Shown one piece after another: positions 1,969 to 8,196 of a stretch of DNA of 64,000 bases (within the stretch, counting starts at the first letter, position 1; each line of letters begins with the position of its first letter). The stretch spans positions 656,465 through 720,464 of the forward strand of contig CAWCTC010000001.1 in NCBI GenBank assembly GCA_963798465.1, written 5' to 3'. The notes under the pieces were generated by a model, which saw nothing but the letters and a program-made list of their open reading frames with translations, did not search any database and was not told the origin of the DNA. Both the position numbers and the translations under genes were made by a program. The DNA comes from an uncultured bacterium. Lineage in GTDB: Bacteria; Patescibacteriota; Minisyncoccia; Phycocordibacterales; GWA1-40-21.

Positions 1969-4264
1969 TTATTTCGCCACCTGCACCGCTTCTTCAAACT
2001 GAATAGAAAGCAATCTTGAAACGCCATCAGAGCCCATTGTTACTCCGTAAATAACGCCGGCACGAGACATCGTTTCCCTATTGTGAGTAATGAGGATGAG
2101 CTGGGAATATTTTGAAAGTTCGGAAATCATATCGCCGTATTTCTTGGAATTGGCTTCATCAAGAGCAGCATCCGTCTCATCAAGAATAATAAATGGTGGC
2201 GGATTCACCTGCGGAGATGGCAAAAAGAAGCGCGATGGAAGTAAAGCTCTTTCTCCGCCGGAGAGCATCATCAGTCCTTTTGTTTTTTTCTTGGCAAGAA
2301 ACTTCAATTTCCAATCCTTCTTCGGTTTCTTCTTCCTCGATTATTTCTTCACCTTCAGATTCGCCATGGCTGAAGTGAAATCTGTATCGGATTTTTTCCT
2401 CTTTTTTTCTTTCAGCAATAACAGAAAGCGAAGCAGAACCTCCGCCAAACATCGCTGAGAAGAATTGCTGGAATTCGAATTAATTTTTGCAACGCCGAGT
2501 TCGAATTCGGTTGCGAGTTTTTCATCAAGCTCTTTGATGAGATTTTTCAAAGATTACGGAAGAATTTATCAAATCGGTCAATTCTTTTTCAAGAAAAGTA
2601 TCGCGCTCCGTCGTTTCTTTGTATTCTTTCACAATTTCATCTCCTCCGGCAACTCCGGCATCTTCCAATCGGATTTTTATTTTTTCCATCACGCGTTTTT
2701 TGTCTTCCTGAATTTGTCTTGGTTCTTTTACAATTTGCTCGATTGAAAGTGCGATACCATCTGCATTTGTCGGCCAGAAATCCTTATAATGAAGCGCGGA
2801 AACGCCAACCAAAATCGAAGCTTCCTGAAGCTCTCGCTTGAATTCTTCTTCATCATGTCGCAATCTTGATTCCCTGCTTTCCAAACCATTTAATCTGCCG
2901 CGGATTTCATTTTGCTCAGCAACAATTCTGAACAATGATTTTTCCGCATCTCTGTTTGAATCTTTTTCTTTTTCAATATCATTTTTCAAAATATGAATAT
3001 TGCTCGGAAAGTTCTGTTTCAAGATTATTCGCGTCTTTCAGCTTGATTTCATAACCGGACTTTTCGATTTCCAGCTTTTTGATTTCGTTTTCCAAATCAT
3101 CGATTGCCTGCTTGTCTTCATTTTCTTTATTTCTTTCTATGAAATCTCTGAGGATTTTCTTGATTGAAGCAAAAATTTCTTTTACTTTTGAAAAATCATT
3201 TTCTGAAACGCCATCAATTTCCAAATCAATTTGCTTTGCGACATTTTCAATCTGCGACAAATCCACTGTCTTTTTTGACATCGCAGAGTTCGCTTCATTT
3301 TGTTTTTTTATCAATCTGGCAAGCGAAGAAATTTCTCCTTCGATTCTTCCGATGCTTCTCATCAGATTGATCTTTTAAATTGCGAACTTCTTTGAGTTTG
3401 CCTTCAACTTTTACAACTTCATCACTGCGAGAATCTTTTGATTCGGACTTCGCCAAAACTTCTTTCGCTTCAGCAAGTTCTTTTTCAAGTTTGTGCGAGC
3501 TTTCAATAAGCGGATTTTTTTCACTAGCGATGCTTTCTTTTTCAAATTTAATATATTCTTCTTCACGGCGAAAATAATCGTGATACATTTTTGTGAGATC
3601 TTCTTTCATCTCGACTGTTTTTTCGATTTTCTCGACAGCTTTTTTCAAAAATTTAATATGCGGAGCGATTTCTCTTCGCAGAGATTCGACTTGTTTTATA
3701 TTTTCTTCCGTTTTTTCGAGCTTGCGGATGCTTTCATCTTTTTTGTTCTGAAATATTTTTAGGCCGAGGGCATCTTCAATCATTTCCCTTCTCTCGCGGA
3801 TATTTGAATTCAAAATCTTGTCAGCTTCGCCCTGAGAAATTATCTGGTGGCCCGAAGCTCCGATATGTGCGCCGAAGAAAGAAGCTCAACGATATCTTTC
3901 AAACGGACAGAACTTCCGTTTATCAGATATTCGCTCGAAGAATCCCTGTTTACGACACGCTCGATTGCAACTTCATCAAAATCAATATTGAAAATTCTTT
4001 GAACATTATTGAAAGTCAATTTGACACGACGCGCGATTTGAACGAGCTGCATCTTTTCCGCCGTTAAAAATCAAATCTTCGGCTCTTTTTCCGCGCAATG
4101 ATTTGATGGATTGTTCACCCAAAACAAAACTAAACGCTTCGGCAACGTTTGATTTACCGGAACCATTCGGCCCGACAATAGCAGAAATCGGCACATTAAA
4201 ATCCAGCGTGGCTTTTTTTACCAAATGACTTGAATCCCGAAATTTCTATGCTCTTTAAATACAT
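1969..4264 (-). pseudogene. smc: SMC-family chromosome partition ATPase, broken by about 10 frame changes (true pseudogene or assembly indels)
   Basis: Collinear minus-strand fragments encode an N-head ([23 protein letters not shown] Walker A), long coiled-coil segments, 'FSAMFGGGSASL', and a C-head ('LSGGERAL/TSIALLFAIS/QVNPPPFIILDETDAALD') spread over alternating frames. Confidence 0.8.
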
Positions 4265-4330: not shown

Positions 4331-4360
4331 AAAAAACCTCCTGATTTAGGAGGCTTTTTC
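4331..4360 (-). terminator. Rho-independent terminator (CCTCCT/AGGAGG stem + U-run) overlapping stop of the 108-aa ORF
   Basis: Minus strand reads 'gcCTCCTaaatcAGGAGGttttttt'. Confidence 0.5.
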
Positions 4361-4672
4361 TTGAACATTTATTATCATACTATTAATAATTGATTCTATC
4401 TTTCCATCTTTATTATCGTAAAATTCATATTCAGACTGATCTGGTAATTTTTCACCAGACATCATAGCTATAAATGCGTTAGCCAAGAAATATTTATCAC
4501 GCTTTAAATTATTCTCATTCAAATATTCCATAAACTCTGGTCTCATAGTCGAGTCTAAATTGGGCAATAAATATTCAGCAATCTCAGACTTTAAACTATC
4601 AAAGTTTGTGAATTTTTCTGGCCTTTCTTGCTGTTCTTCCGATATTAAATTTAAATTTTCCATACTTTTCAT
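4346..4672 (-). CDS. Hypothetical acidic protein (108 aa)
   Basis: Intact ORF between rnc and smc with no recognisable motif. Confidence 0.45.
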   Translation of the reverse strand: MKSMENLNLISEEQQERPEKFTNFDSLKSEIAEYLLPNLDSTMRPEFMEYLNENNLKRDKYFLANAFIAMMSGEKLPDQSEYEFYDNKDGKIESIINSMIINVQEKAS

Positions 4673-4686
4673 AATTTTTATAAATA

Positions 4687-5007
4687 TTATTTGTGCGTTT
4701 CTGAAAACTTATAATCAAAATCCCTTATGAATTTTTCTATGTCTTTTTCTGGAGTATCAAATTTTTCAATTTCATCTTGCGGAGTGCTGCCGATAACTCT
4801 GTGCCACAAAATATAGTCCAGCGGATTATATCCTTTGTCCTCCAATTCTAAAATAAAATCTTTTGCAGCTTTTTGTCGTGCCATAAATTTATCCAAAGCA
4901 TGCGGAGCATTTCTGTCAACCAACAATAAAGCATTTATCTCGGAAAGAATTTCATTCTGTTCCGAAGTTAAATTTTCATATTCTTTTTTTCCTTGATAAC
5001 TTTCCAT
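4687..5007 (-). CDS. Hypothetical acidic protein (106 aa)
   Basis: Intact ORF 8 nt downstream of rnc with no recognisable motif. Confidence 0.45.
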   Translation of the reverse strand: MESYQGKKEYENLTSEQNEILSEINALLLVDRNAPHALDKFMARQKAAKDFILELEDKGYNPLDYILWHRVIGSTPQDEIEKFDTPEKDIEKFIRDFDYKFSETHK

Positions 5008-5015
5008 GAATATTT

Positions 5016-5717
5016 TTAATTTATTTCCCAGCCTTTGGCTTTCAGCGCATTTTTTGCCGCTTCCTGCTCGGCTTCCTGTTTTGATTTGCCTGTTCCTTCC
5101 GCGATTTTTTCTTTGCCTAGAAATACTCCGACTGTGAATTTTTTGTCATGATCCGGACCTTCTTCTTTCAAAGTTTTGTAAGCCGGCGTGACGCTTTCAT
5201 TTTCCTGCGCCTGTTCCTGAAATTTGCTTTTTGCATCAAGCCAAGTTTTTTCCTCGACTATTTTTTCGATAAGATTGAAAATGTATCTTGAAATGAAATA
5301 TTTTGCCATTTCATATCCTTGATCCAAGAATATTGCGCCAATCAAAGCTTCTATAGTATTTGCCAAAATAATCTGCCTGGCTCTTCCGGTATCTTTTGCT
5401 TCGCCTTTTGAAAGCAGAAGATAATCATTCATACCAATTTTTGAAGCGGCATCTGACATCGTGACGGCATTTACAAGTGCAGATCTGAAAGATGTCAGCT
5501 CTCCTTCATTACTGTCAGGATATTTTTCATATAAATGTTCAGTGACAATAAGTTCAAGAACCGCATCGCCCAAAAATTCTAATCTTTCATTGTGAACCAG
5601 TTCAGAATCCTTGTGCTCGTTCAAATAAGACCTATGGGTAAAAGCCTGTTTCAAAAGATTCTTGTCTTTAAAAGTTATTCCTATATTTTTTTCGAAACTT
5701 GAAAAATCTGGCTTCAT
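5016..5717 (-). CDS. rnc: Ribonuclease III
   Basis: Carries the RNase III signature 'NERLEFLGDAVLELIV' and a C-terminal dsRBD ('KKFTVGVFLGKEKIAEGTGKSKQEAEQEAAKNAL'). Confidence 0.92.
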   Translation of the reverse strand: MKPDFSSFEKNIGITFKDKNLLKQAFTHRSYLNEHKDSELVHNERLEFLGDAVLELIVTEHLYEKYPDSNEGELTSFRSALVNAVTMSDAASKIGMNDYLLLSKGEAKDTGRARQIILANTIEALIGAIFLDQGYEMAKYFISRYIFNLIEKIVEEKTWLDAKSKFQEQAQENESVTPAYKTLKEEGPDHDKKFTVGVFLGKEKIAEGTGKSKQEAEQEAAKNALKAKGWEIN

Positions 5718-5860
5718 TTACCCGAGGAAATTTTTGCCAATAAAAATTACTGTTTCGGCAAAACAGTGATATTCGTTATTTTTCTTGATTAAACCTGTTG
5801 TCATTATAAGTTGTTATGTAACAATTTTTAGAAACGTTGGCAAAAACTTTGACGGGTGAA
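5718..5860 (-). repeat. Family-1 intergenic hairpin element, copy A (abuts rnc ATG)
   Basis: The ends 'TTACCCGAGGAAATTTTTGCCAAT' and 'CGTTGGCAAAAACTTTGACGGGTGAA' form an imperfect inverted repeat. They are shared with the copies at 8886-9022 and 26458-26596. Confidence 0.75.
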
Positions 5861-5875
5861 CTTCTCGCTAAAATT

Positions 5876-6775
5876 TTATTGGTTATTTCTGCTGCTTATT
5901 ATTGTTATTGCTTTCGTGATGATTGGCAAGATGTCGTTGTAGAAATTTAAATTTTGAATATCTTGAAGCTTGAACCATTTTGCGTCATCAAGTCCTCCGC
6001 TGTCTCCGAGATGCAATTCCTTTCTGTCGGTTCGAGCAAGAAAATAAGTGACTTGTTTCCTAATCTTTCCTTCTTCAGGATGATTTGCAACATATTCATT
6101 TTTCAAAAGCTCTTCTTCAACTGTGATATCCAAACCGAGCTCGTCTTTTATTTCTCTCAGCACTCCGATTTTTGGATCTTCGCCTGGATTGATTTTACCT
6201 TTTGAAAGAGTCCATTTTCCAAAAACATCGTGAACGAAAGCAAAATAAATATTTCCGTCTTCAATACTATATATCACGGCTCCCGCAAGCTGTTTTATCG
6301 GCATCTTATCAAATGGAATATCTTTATGTTTTTTGGAAACTTCTTCTTTGCCCGGCTCTCCGAGCTCTTTGTAAATCGTTCCCAAAACTCCATTTATAAA
6401 ACCGCCGCTTTTTTCTCCGCTATAAGTTTTTGCAAGCTCAATAGCTTCGTTGATTGCAACTTTTGCCGGAACTTCTTTTCTATCAGAGAACAAAAGCTCA
6501 TAAAGCCCGATGCGCAAAATATTTCTGTCGGCAATCGAAATTTTGTCTATCGGCCAATCCGGCGCAGCTTTCACAATAATACTGTCCAAATCCGCTTTTT
6601 TGTCTATAACTCCTTTCAAAAGATTTTCTGAAAATGCTTTTTCGGAATTGCCTTCTCCAAACTCGGCATTATTTCTTTCAAGCGAGGCAAGAGCCTCTTC
6701 TCTCGAAGAATTGCGAAAATCCCACTCAAAGGCGGATTGAAATACTATTGATCTTGCAAGGTGCCTAGAAGACAT
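5876..6775 (-). CDS. nusB: NusB antitermination factor fused to a C-terminal Nudix hydrolase domain
   Basis: The N-terminal ~145 aa are NusB-like ('ADRNILRIGLYELLF..VPAKVAINEAIELAK..GFINGVL'). The C-terminal half carries a Nudix box, 'GKINPGEDPKIGVLREIKDELGL'. Confidence 0.8.
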   Translation of the reverse strand: MSSRHLARSIVFQSAFEWDFRNSSREEALASLERNNAEFGEGNSEKAFSENLLKGVIDKKADLDSIIVKAAPDWPIDKISIADRNILRIGLYELLFSDRKEVPAKVAINEAIELAKTYSGEKSGGFINGVLGTIYKELGEPGKEEVSKKHKDIPFDKMPIKQLAGAVIYSIEDGNIYFAFVHDVFGKWTLSKGKINPGEDPKIGVLREIKDELGLDITVEEELLKNEYVANHPEEGKIRKQVTYFLARTDRKELHLGDSGGLDDAKWFKLQDIQNLNFYNDILPIITKAITIISSRNNQ

Positions 6776-6879
6776 ATATTTTGCTTAGCTTTTTATGGCT
6801 TATTTGATTACTGAGATTATTCTATAATAAAAAAAGAAAAAAGAAAAGGCCTCGTGATAATATGCGCGAAGCCTTCTTT

Positions 6880-7290
6880 CTAACATATAATTGTTGATTT
6901 TTTCTTTAATAATTTTATCAACCTTCTTGTTTGCTTGTCATTACCTTCCAAACCCTCCAAAATTTTTTCCTTTCTTTCATCAGCACTTTTAAGATATTTT
7001 TTCACAGCAATAATAATCTGTGAATTAATATTAAAAGGTTCTGAAGAGTATGGTTGCTGAACGACTTTAAACTTATACATAAATGGATCCATAACAATAT
7101 GAACATCGTACCTCGATCTCGAATAGCATGAGTGCTCGTTTAAAGCCGGATATATATACAACTTCATTCCCCGACTTTTCAAAGCTTTGCACATTTCCAG
7201 CCACTCTTTTTTTACACTTTCTGACATTCCGCACAAAACAAGTTCAACCGCCATAGAATAACTATCTTTTGTAAAGATTTTTTTATTCAT
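6880..7290 (-). CDS. Hypothetical protein (136 aa) with strong SD
   Basis: Intact ORF preceded by 'AAAGGAGGtttttATG'. Confidence 0.55.
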   Translation of the reverse strand: MNKKIFTKDSYSMAVELVLCGMSESVKKEWLEMCKALKSRGMKLYIYPALNEHSCYSRSRYDVHIVMDPFMYKFKVVQQPYSSEPFNINSQIIIAVKKYLKSADERKEKILEGLEGNDKQTRRLIKLLKKKSTIIC

Positions 7291-7382
7291 AAAAACCTCC
7301 TTTTGTCCGATTGGACTATTCTTGTTTGGCTAACTTCCAAATACAAGGCTAGCACAAGAAAACATGCAGTCAAATAAAATAT

Positions 7383-7413
7383 AAAAGGGCGGTCGCTTCG
7401 CGACCGCCCTTTT
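7383..7413. terminator. GC-rich hairpin terminator (GGGCGGTCGC-TTC-GCGACCGCCC flanked by A/T runs)
   Basis: Perfect 10-bp palindromic arms directly after the rpmF stop. Same design as the hairpins at 16511 and 19698. Confidence 0.7.
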
Positions 7414-7418
7414 ATATT

Positions 7419-7685
7419 TTATTTTTTATCTTCCGTCTTTTTCTCAGCCTTTTTTGGTTTAGTTGCTTTTTCCGTCTTTGCTACTTTCGCAGTTTTGACT
7501 GGCTTCGGCTTCTTCTCCATATTTATTACAACTCTTCCTCTGTATTTTCCACAATTTGAACATGCTTGATGTCTCATAACTGGGCTGTTACAATCTGGGC
7601 ACTTTGTAAGTGCAATCCCTTTCAAAGCATGATGTGATCTCGTGCTTCCTCTCTGGGATCTATTATGTCTCATTCGGTTTACCAT
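7419..7685 (-). CDS. rpmF: 50S ribosomal protein L32 with Lys-rich C-terminal extension
   Basis: 'RMRHNRSQRGSTRSHHALK' plus a CxxC...CxxC zinc ribbon ('CPDCNSPVMRHQACSNCGKYRGR'), followed by a K/A/T/E-rich tail. Confidence 0.85.
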   Translation of the reverse strand: MVNRMRHNRSQRGSTRSHHALKGIALTKCPDCNSPVMRHQACSNCGKYRGRVVINMEKKPKPVKTAKVAKTEKATKPKKAEKKTEDKK

Positions 7686-7737
7686 AGTGAAAAAGAGTAT
7701 AGCGTATTTCTTTAAAAAAGAAAAGGCCCGGAATAAA

Positions 7738-8196
7738 TTATTCCGGGCCGTAACTTTTAATTATTTCTTGGAGAGTTTTGAACTCCTCGTCTGTTTTTTT
7801 AAACTCTCCAATTCTTAACATCTCGCCTATGAGCATTTTAAACTCCTTTTTTTGCTCAAAAGAAAGATTATTACTAATCTCAATAAGAGGCCTTACAAAA
7901 ATATCTCTTATGCTGTAAGGTACCTCTACAAAAATATAAAGTGACATCTTGTCATTCCTCGTATCAACACCGAATTCAATCGGCGACTCATCTTTATGAA
8001 GAACGATAAGTCCTTTTTTTTCCAATTCATTGGATACCCTATAAAAAATAATTTCCAACAAATTAGGAAACTTTTCATTCACTTCCACTTCAACAATCGG
8101 AAATTTATAATTTCCCGGAGTAGCATCCGCTACAACGGCATAAAAGCCGTTATGAAGATACTTCATACAAAAACAAGTGCATGACACTTTTACCAT
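7738..8196 (-). CDS. Hypothetical protein (152 aa) with strong SD
   Basis: Intact ORF preceded by 'AGAGGTGATcatccATG'. Confidence 0.55.
   Translation of the reverse strand: MVKVSCTCFCMKYLHNGFYAVVADATPGNYKFPIVEVEVNEKFPNLLEIIFYRVSNELEKKGLIVLHKDESPIEFGVDTRNDKMSLYIFVEVPYSIRDIFVRPLIEISNNLSFEQKKEFKMLIGEMLRIGEFKKTDEEFKTLQEIIKSYGPE

Follow-up and report, generated by a model that had tools for sequence, protein, structure and literature searches.

A stretch of 64,000 nt from an uncultured bacterium (Patescibacteriota; contig CAWCTC010000001.1, positions 656,465 to 720,464), hereafter the window, carries on its minus strand a gene in which the sequence for the Nus factor NusB is fused to that for a Nudix-fold domain (nusB::nudix; 5876..6775). 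The open reading frame (ORF) starts with ATG, has no internal stop over 299 codons, and encodes both Pfam domains, NusB at residues 7–136 (E = 1.2e-33) and NUDIX at residues 186–281 (E = 1.3e-12); residue numbers given below refer to this 299-residue protein. Directly downstream on the same strand lies rnc for RNase III (5016..5717; TIGR02191, 262 bits), and rpmF for ribosomal protein L32 is located upstream, also on the minus strand (7419..7685; identified with phmmer). A preliminary description, drawn from the DNA alone, had proposed a single intact ORF of 299 residues combining NusB and Nudix, a near-canonical Nudix box, and rnc as the next gene downstream. All three points were confirmed; the strand, which it had omitted, is the minus strand.

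The N-terminal half (residues 1–140; 6356..6775, minus strand) was assigned to NusB by PF01029, whose match covers model positions 3–133 of 133, by the NCBIfam model TIGR01951 (125.7 bits; cut-off 88.35), by sequence matches in the PDB, and by Foldseek. Full-length alignments were obtained with NusB from T. maritima (4.7e-21), with the Aquifex protein of the NusB-NusE-BoxA complex (4e-18), and with E. coli NusB as present in the lambda-N and rRNA antitermination (rrnTAC) complexes (2e-13). In the AlphaFold2 (AF2) model, this half forms the all-helical NusB fold with seven helices, matching 3r2c/3r2d and 1tzv with template modeling (TM) scores of 0.88 and 0.84, respectively, and its helix motifs DRNILRIGLYEL and VPAKVAINEAIELAK...F.NGVLG are found in solved NusB proteins as well. 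By sequence and fold, the first 140 residues thus correspond to full-length NusB. A second NusB was found neither within the window nor within 6 kb of the 80 related loci described below. Judged by its sequence, the N-terminal half is a normal NusB which, by inference, binds S10 (NusE) and BoxA RNA in the rRNA antitermination complex. Whereas canonical NusB is a single-domain protein of ∼130–150 residues, the fusion adds a linker and a Nudix-fold domain of 140 residues. RsmB, the known multi-domain NusB relative, differs in that its NusB-like N-terminal domain is combined with a methyltransferase and not with Nudix.

The linker (residues 141–160; 6296..6355, minus strand), delimited by AF2 confidence and column conservation, opens with a conserved G-E-P-G-K motif; at each of G139, E140, P141, and K143, at least 78 of 81 species share the same residue. 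Modeling of the window protein (mean predicted local distance difference test [pLDDT] of 82) resolved both domains well, but no fixed contact between them; residues 141–151 were below a pLDDT of 50 and the predicted TM score (pTM) was 0.54. For P0252, a very divergent orthologue, pTM was 0.50 and the linker was likewise below a pLDDT of 50. The combination of low pTM and low linker confidence argues that the two halves are independent bodies joined by a disordered, flexible tether of ∼10–20 residues; these models give no fixed packing between NusB and Nudix.

The C-terminal half (residues 161–299; 5879..6295, minus strand) was assigned to the Nudix fold by PF00293, PDB sequence matches, and Foldseek, and is of the diadenosine tetraphosphate (Ap4A) hydrolase/MutT1 type. 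Its Nudix box, GKINPGEDPKIGVLREIKDELGL (residues 193–215; 6131..6199, minus strand), is intact in the window copy and fits the pattern G-x5-E-x7-R-E-U-x-[D]E-x-G-U with a single E-to-D change; in most orthologues, it is degenerate. The best PDB sequence matches were mycobacterial MutT1/Rv2985 (9cxx, deposited as “Nudix diadenosine polyphosphatase”), CT771, and the Ap4A hydrolases of C. elegans and Aquifex. Structurally, the Aquifex Ap4A hydrolase (3i7u; TM 0.85–0.89) and the Thermus Ap6A hydrolase Ndx1 (TM 0.85) were closest, BdRppH was weaker (TM 0.66–0.74), and NrtR was also among the matches. None of the curated Nudix equivalogs of NCBIfam was passed by the window's Nudix half: the RppH models (PRK00714 variants) gave at most 23.6 bits against cut-offs of 116–259, and TIGR02705 (YtkD) did not match the domain. 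Orthology to RppH was rejected on the basis of these scores. Both sequence and predicted structure place the origin of the Nudix half in the diadenosine-polyphosphate (ApnA) hydrolase branch comprising Ap4A hydrolase, MutT1, and CT771.

With the members of this branch (Aquifex aq_158, 3i7u; the C. elegans and human Ap4A hydrolases, 1ktg and 3u53; Chlamydia CT771, 4mpo; Thermus Ndx1, 1vc8; and the Nudix domain of mycobacterial MutT1/Rv2985, 9cxx), the closest relatives by sequence and structure (TM up to 0.89), the domain shares a W-T-x-x-K-G motif, the phosphate-binding lysines, and an aromatic clamp. The ApnA hydrolases are, however, free-standing active enzymes with a full box and an extra catalytic glutamate, whereas the fusion family is joined to NusB, has glycine in place of the extra glutamate, and in most members lacks the glutamate of the RE pair. 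With RppH (E. coli NudH, BdRppH, and B. subtilis YtkD), it has the Nudix fold and possibly the RNA 5′ end as a target in common, but it stays far under the model cut-offs, is structurally less similar to RppH than to Ap4A hydrolases, and does not conserve the catalytic residues.

Distribution and gene order of the fusion

One genome per species was scanned, and the best 80 loci (L001–L080) were analyzed. All 80 contain the fusion at full length, with 54–82% identity to the window protein; the named genomes are all Parcubacteria/Paceibacteria, with names that include Adler-, Kaiser-, Nomura-, Taylor-, Vogel-, and Yonathbacteria, Parcubacteria, and Paceibacterota. At the protein level, each of the 120 best clusters (68–99% identity, 276–305 residues) contains both Pfam domains, and these clusters were drawn from independent NCBI, JGI, ENA, and Logan assemblies, the sources labeling them plainly as “NusB.” With P0252 as the query, 7591 clusters fell at or below E = 1e-10, and the best 120 are again 279–317 residues long; beyond the named Paceibacteria, the taxonomic breadth is indicated by source labels, one of which, from this search, reads “Gracilibacteria.” Many of the 80 loci were deposited as “uncultured Candidatus Saccharibacteria bacterium.” These labels are probably default entries or wrong, as the NusB-Nudix proteins and the gene order match those of named Parcubacteria/Paceibacteria. 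Within the Paceibacteria (Parcubacteria; candidate phyla radiation), the fusion is lineage-wide.

The view that two separate genes were joined by an error of assembly or sequencing could draw on the proximity of a gene with several frameshifts (smc) in the window. It is refuted by the recurrence of the continuous ORF with its conserved linker in hundreds of independent assemblies (NCBI, JGI, ENA, and Logan), and its probability is practically negligible. A hidden stop or frameshift at ∼6,330, which the preliminary description had considered, is in practice excluded by the continuity of the ∼300-residue protein in the 120 listed clusters and the 80 genomes, and the lineage-wide occurrence it had proposed as a test was borne out in the latter. 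No truncated or Nudix-less orthologue was found among the best 80 species genomes. Two short relatives were considered as evidence for split nusB and nudix genes and rejected: P0124 is a contig-edge fragment, followed by rnc, and P0155 (L083, 4001–4453), a true free-standing Nudix protein with intact box, is uninformative in this respect. Its neighbors are genes for an integrase, a DNA methylase, and a phage replication protein, which looks like a mobile element or prophage.

Gene order is conserved as well. In 76 of the 80 loci, rpmF is directly upstream of the fusion gene (phmmer), and in two more within 2 kb; rnhB is found further upstream in 61. Directly downstream, on the same strand, 77 loci have rnc, and one more has it within 2 kb; both loci without rnc stop at a contig edge. 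Overall, 78 of the 80 loci show the order rpmF, nusB::nudix, rnc. In the relatives, the stop codon of nusB::nudix and the start of rnc often overlap or adjoin each other, which argues that nusB::nudix and rnc are co-transcribed in one operon.

Catalytic and binding residues of the Nudix half

The box was considered intact when all five of E199, R207, E208, E/D211, and E212 were present, and was scored in three sets of fused proteins: 81 species (the window plus the 80 loci), 51 representatives of clusters at 50% identity, and 118 relatives of P0252. It was intact in 30/81, 8/51, and 30/118, respectively, compared with 21 of 25 distant free-standing relatives of 140–150 residues. Between 63 and 84% of the fused orthologues, depending on the set, thus have a degenerate box. 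At position 208, K, V, I, A, G, S, or N takes the place of the glutamate of the RE pair; some fused proteins have additionally lost E199 and R207 (e.g., the “GVDPSDGTIAKVKEEIGL” variant), and even P0004, which is 92% identical to the window protein, has RK in place of RE. Whereas normal Nudix families conserve the box more than any other segment, the fused Nudix domain conserves it least, with a mean column entropy of 1.68 (whole Nudix domain, 1.30; NusB, 0.97). When the intact and degenerate states were placed on a neighbor-joining tree calculated without the box columns, parsimony required ∼20 changes on this weakly resolved topology, which is near the mean of 24 for random shuffles and points to many, independent losses.

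A further catalytic position is affected almost throughout. Residue 261 (codon at 5993..5995, minus strand) is glycine in 81/81, 46/51, and 105/118 of the fused proteins, the window's included, but glutamate in 16 of the 25 free-standing relatives; it aligns with the catalytic E103 of the C. elegans Ap4A hydrolase (1kt9). In that enzyme, studied by Abdelghany et al. in 2003, the exchanges E56Q, E52Q, and E103Q reportedly cut kcat ∼1e5-, 1e3-, and 30-fold. E56, E52, and E103 correspond to E212, E208, and G261, respectively, of the fusion protein. Judged from these alignments, the conserved function of the C-terminal domain is not canonical hydrolysis.

This bears on the proposal that the domain is an active RppH-like or decapping enzyme, delivered by NusB to nascent rRNA, which would convert 5′-triphosphates or caps to 5′-monophosphates in step with antitermination and RNase III. 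The almost canonical box of the window copy, the lineage-wide linkage to NusB and rnc, the clear structural match to BdRppH, and the retention of a full box in 25–37% of the fused proteins (16% among the 50%-cluster representatives) are in favor of such an enzyme, as is the suggestion that ApnA hydrolases, among which RppH is grouped, may act on RNA ends (Srouji et al; PMC5389931). Against it stand the loss of catalytic residues in most orthologues, close relatives such as P0004 among them, the family-wide G261, the low score with the RppH models (23.6 bits vs 118), and the fact that the box is the least constrained segment, contrary to what is expected for an enzyme under selection. We therefore regard an active enzyme as unlikely. 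The preliminary description had seen in the fusion a coupling of NusB to RNA 5′-end chemistry through an RppH-type activity. The fusion itself, its link to rnc, and its spread through the lineage stand; RppH-type activity as the conserved function is not supported, as the Nudix half groups with Ap4A/Ap6A hydrolases and MutT1 and its catalytic residues are degenerate in the majority, with glycine for glutamate at position 261 in nearly all.

The residues predicted to bind the substrate behave differently from the box. In Ap4A hydrolases, the histidine and lysine of the HWTPPKG motif, together with a lysine after the loop-5 tyrosine, hold the terminal phosphate, while the adenine is clamped between a conserved tyrosine and another aromatic residue (PMC4734340, PMC5389931). 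Their counterparts in the fusion would be H/K187, K192, and K240 for the phosphate, and Y228 and Y279 for the base. Among the P0252 relatives, Y228 and Y279 are each present in 118/118, K192 and K240 each in 114/118 (the other four having arginine), and W188 and W267 are nearly invariant; all six residues are kept in 50–51 of the 51 box-degenerate species. Position 187 is histidine in 63 of 81 species and R, Y, K, or F elsewhere, with lysine in the window protein. For the roles of these positions, the study by Abdelghany et al. (2003) is a further source. In an alignment of proteins only 37–50% identical overall, the C-terminal residues that are still invariant are D183, F185, T189, Y228, P233, K240, and Y279, and none of these is a catalytic box residue.

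The fold, too, appears to outlast the motif. In precomputed Pfam domains, ∼22 of the top matches to P0252 have no NUDIX assignment. P0252 itself (box “SDLPEGEDEIKVAEQAAKRDFGL”) has none, yet its model reaches a pLDDT of 87.7 and best matches 3i7u (TM 0.87), which indicates that the Nudix fold survives where the motif is gone. With its fold kept, its box degenerate, and another surface conserved, the fused family is best described, on the basis of alignments and models, as a pseudoenzyme-type Nudix, although strictly this does not apply to the window's own copy.

Such a pattern is difficult to reconcile with a neutral fusion, in which an Ap4A hydrolase gene beside nusB was joined to it via stop loss and is slowly decaying, kept only to spare nusB-rnc expression. 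Genome reduction in Paceibacteria-type bacteria favors gene fusions, and the catalytic losses are repeated and patchy, as decay would predict. Decay should, however, also have erased the fold and the binding residues, whereas seven C-terminal residues are invariant at 37–50% identity, Y228 and Y279 are present without exception, and a confident fold is predicted even for the most degenerate member. Moreover, the best 80 species genomes contain no orthologue that is truncated or has lost the domain, the short forms being contig-edge fragments. A neutral origin and maintenance is thus very unlikely.

A pure protein–protein scaffold, analogous to SuhB and without a small ligand, would be compatible with a domain that is strongly conserved although its catalytic residues are dispensable; S10, NusA, NusG, RNA polymerase, or RNase III might be its partners, and the conserved G-E-P-G-K motif of the linker could serve for docking. 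Nudix domains that serve in protein interactions without being enzymes have been recognized as a class (PMC5389931, PMC2425470). A scaffold need not keep K192, K240, Y228, and Y279, however, which correspond to the phosphate and base binders of Ap4A hydrolases (PMC4734340) and are invariant here, and AF2 shows no fixed contact between Nudix and NusB (pTM 0.5). We consider it improbable that the domain acts solely in this way, to the same degree as for the active enzyme.

Surroundings of the fusion gene in the window

In the window, the fusion gene and rnc are separated by 158 nt. Folding of this region predicted a long-range stem (5716..5861, minus strand; arms 5837–5861 and 5716–5740) with a minimum free energy of −31.6 kcal/mol (z = −2.2) that covers the ribosome-binding region and start codon of rnc. 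Both of its arms are also present in L002. Where other loci have long spacers, these contain long perfect stems of a different kind, e.g., one of ∼30 bp in L023 (z = −5.4). The leader of E. coli rnc is a precedent for autoregulation and processing by RNase III, and the spacer stems may be sites of this kind.

On the other side, an ORF of 136 codons (6880–7290, minus strand) separates rpmF from the fusion gene. It matched neither Pfam nor PHROGs, and a hairpin with a T-run follows it at ∼6852–6869. In 76 of the 80 relatives, rpmF and the fusion gene are adjacent. The ORF has the appearance of an insertion specific to the window, which provides the fusion gene with a promoter region of its own. 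On either side of rpmF lies a perfect GC-rich palindrome, at 7375–7421 (20-bp stem) and 7725–7749 (11-bp stem), the former reading as a terminator on both strands.

Downstream of rnc, two small ORFs for acidic proteins of 108 (4346–4672, minus strand) and 106 residues (4687–5007, minus strand) precede smc; neither matched a Pfam or PHROGs family, and relatives were found in only one and three other loci, respectively. The smc-like gene (1972–4258, minus strand) is split over at least four reading frames, its pieces lying in frames −1, −2, −3, −1, and −2. In 67 of the 80 related loci, smc is intact (∼760 residues), and the genes beside the broken window copy are intact as well; this copy is either a pseudogene or the result of local sequencing errors.

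Possible role in rRNA antitermination

That the residues for binding phosphate and base have been retained argues that the domain recognizes a nucleoside-polyphosphate group. We tentatively favor, at somewhat less than an even chance, a module that binds a nucleotide polyphosphate or an RNA 5′ end and is flexibly tethered to NusB, hydrolysis being optional. NusB has gained its C-terminal Nudix-fold domain throughout the Paceibacteria lineage; in the favored reading, the NusB half would bind S10 and BoxA in the rRNA antitermination complex, and the Nudix half, whose metal-binding catalytic glutamates appear to have been lost repeatedly and independently, would be conserved for binding rather than catalysis, acting as a tethered reader. 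Its likeliest target would be either the 5′-triphosphate or Np4N-capped end of the nascent rRNA leader, for which the domain would be a tether or second anchor, or, with the domain as a regulatory input, a free alarmone of the dinucleoside polyphosphate type such as Ap4A. Both are plausible in view of the position of NusB on the BoxA element, close to where the rRNA leader begins at its 5′ end, and of the co-transcription of rnc; RNase III processes the same pre-rRNA that NusB-type antitermination serves. Between the leader end and a free ApnA alarmone, the evidence favors neither. In the minority of proteins with an intact box, including that of the window, slow hydrolysis may persist.

A link of the Nudix half to RNA 5′ ends is not refuted by the poor fit to RppH models, because E. 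coli RppH, initially reported as an Ap5A hydrolase, is grouped with characterized diadenosine-polyphosphate hydrolases in the Nudix tree (Srouji et al; PMC5389931), and because the binding residues of the fusion are invariant. The evidence favors binding of a polyphosphate nucleotide or RNA end, with hydrolysis not obligatory. Nucleotide binding by a Nudix protein without turnover has been observed in CFIm25, which acts in RNA processing, lacks two of the box glutamates, and binds Ap4A (Kd 2.4 μM) and ATP without hydrolyzing them (PMC2425470). Like CFIm25/NUDT21, NrtR, and DBC1, the fusion would place a Nudix fold with degenerate box in RNA or transcription machinery; nucleotide binding without hydrolysis, seen in CFIm25, is for the fusion a proposal by analogy. 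There is no specific homology to these proteins, and lineages, partners, and residue losses are unlike those of the fusion.

Other analogies concern the layout or the concept. Dcp2 also combines an all-helical N-terminal domain, a flexible hinge, and a Nudix domain acting on RNA 5′ ends. The similarity is one of layout only, as Foldseek aligns Dcp2 across both domains of the fusion poorly (root mean square deviation 11–17 Å) and the helical domains are unrelated; Dcp2 is, moreover, an active decapping enzyme. In the E. coli rrnTAC, SuhB is an enzyme fold within a Nus-factor complex that does not need its catalytic activity. The fusion may share this concept with SuhB, which differs in having an inositol monophosphatase fold and in being a separate subunit, not fused to NusB.

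Several points weigh against the favored binding module. E212 is nearly invariant and E/D211 is common in the fused proteins; for this reason, some metal binding and non-canonical or slow hydrolysis may have been preserved. The window copy, with its box intact but for one E-to-D change, may be a working enzyme; that it retains weak activity in spite of glycine at 261 is a real possibility, if one we lean slightly against. The neighbor-joining tree, based on a protein of little length, has poor resolution, and the number of losses deduced from it is inflated as a consequence. The pocket geometry was deduced from alignments, and whether Y228 or H232 is the counterpart of the stacking tyrosine is ambiguous: H232 lies opposite this residue in the HMMER alignment and by the rule of “+17 residues after the box” (PMC2425470), while Y228 is favored by its motif (N-Y-V-A vs E-Y-V-A) and its invariance, given a hairpin extension of five residues.

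Related Nudix domains also occur in other architectures. P0211 (L081, 8001–11225; an ENA contig) is an RNase E/G of 1074 residues with two tandem C-terminal Nudix-like domains, both with degenerate boxes and 31% identical (E = 1.6e-17) to the NusB-fused domain. It was considered as independent support for a role in RNA metabolism and given little weight, being apparently a singleton for which a search with the Nudix region yielded no relatives. P0226 (1219 residues) combines a STAND NTPase, TPR repeats, NusB, and a Nudix domain of the fusion's branch, and in P0210 and P0174, a Nudix domain of this branch is joined to sigma-70 region 4 plus a DnaA-C helix-turn-helix and to endonuclease V, respectively.

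In full-text literature searches that paired NusB with Nudix, fusion, Candidate Phyla Radiation, or Patescibacteria, no description of this fusion architecture was found, and NusB is absent from a large survey of the Nudix clan. The two domains themselves are well known; what is new is an unreported, class-wide architecture of NusB, with a Nudix domain that appears to be turning into a pseudoenzyme. In practical terms, the public annotation “NusB” conceals a second domain. Repeated loss of catalytic residues in combination with frozen binding residues would constitute a clean natural experiment on the transition from enzyme to binding module. NusB is considered to be a universal Nus factor with a single domain, and its class-wide two-domain form implies that the rRNA antitermination machinery is built differently in these reduced, uncultured bacteria. 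We infer, as a testable hypothesis, that a Nus factor may read a 5′-triphosphate, an Np4N cap, or an alarmone. Its most specific form is possible but doubtful: the Nudix pseudoenzyme would be a subunit of the antitermination complex that captures the 5′-triphosphate or Np4N end of the leader or senses Ap4A-type alarmones, and would thereby keep the 5′ end tethered for processing by RNase III or adjust rRNA synthesis in response to stress. If true, this would join non-canonical RNA 5′ ends and Ap4A signaling with co-transcriptional rRNA maturation.

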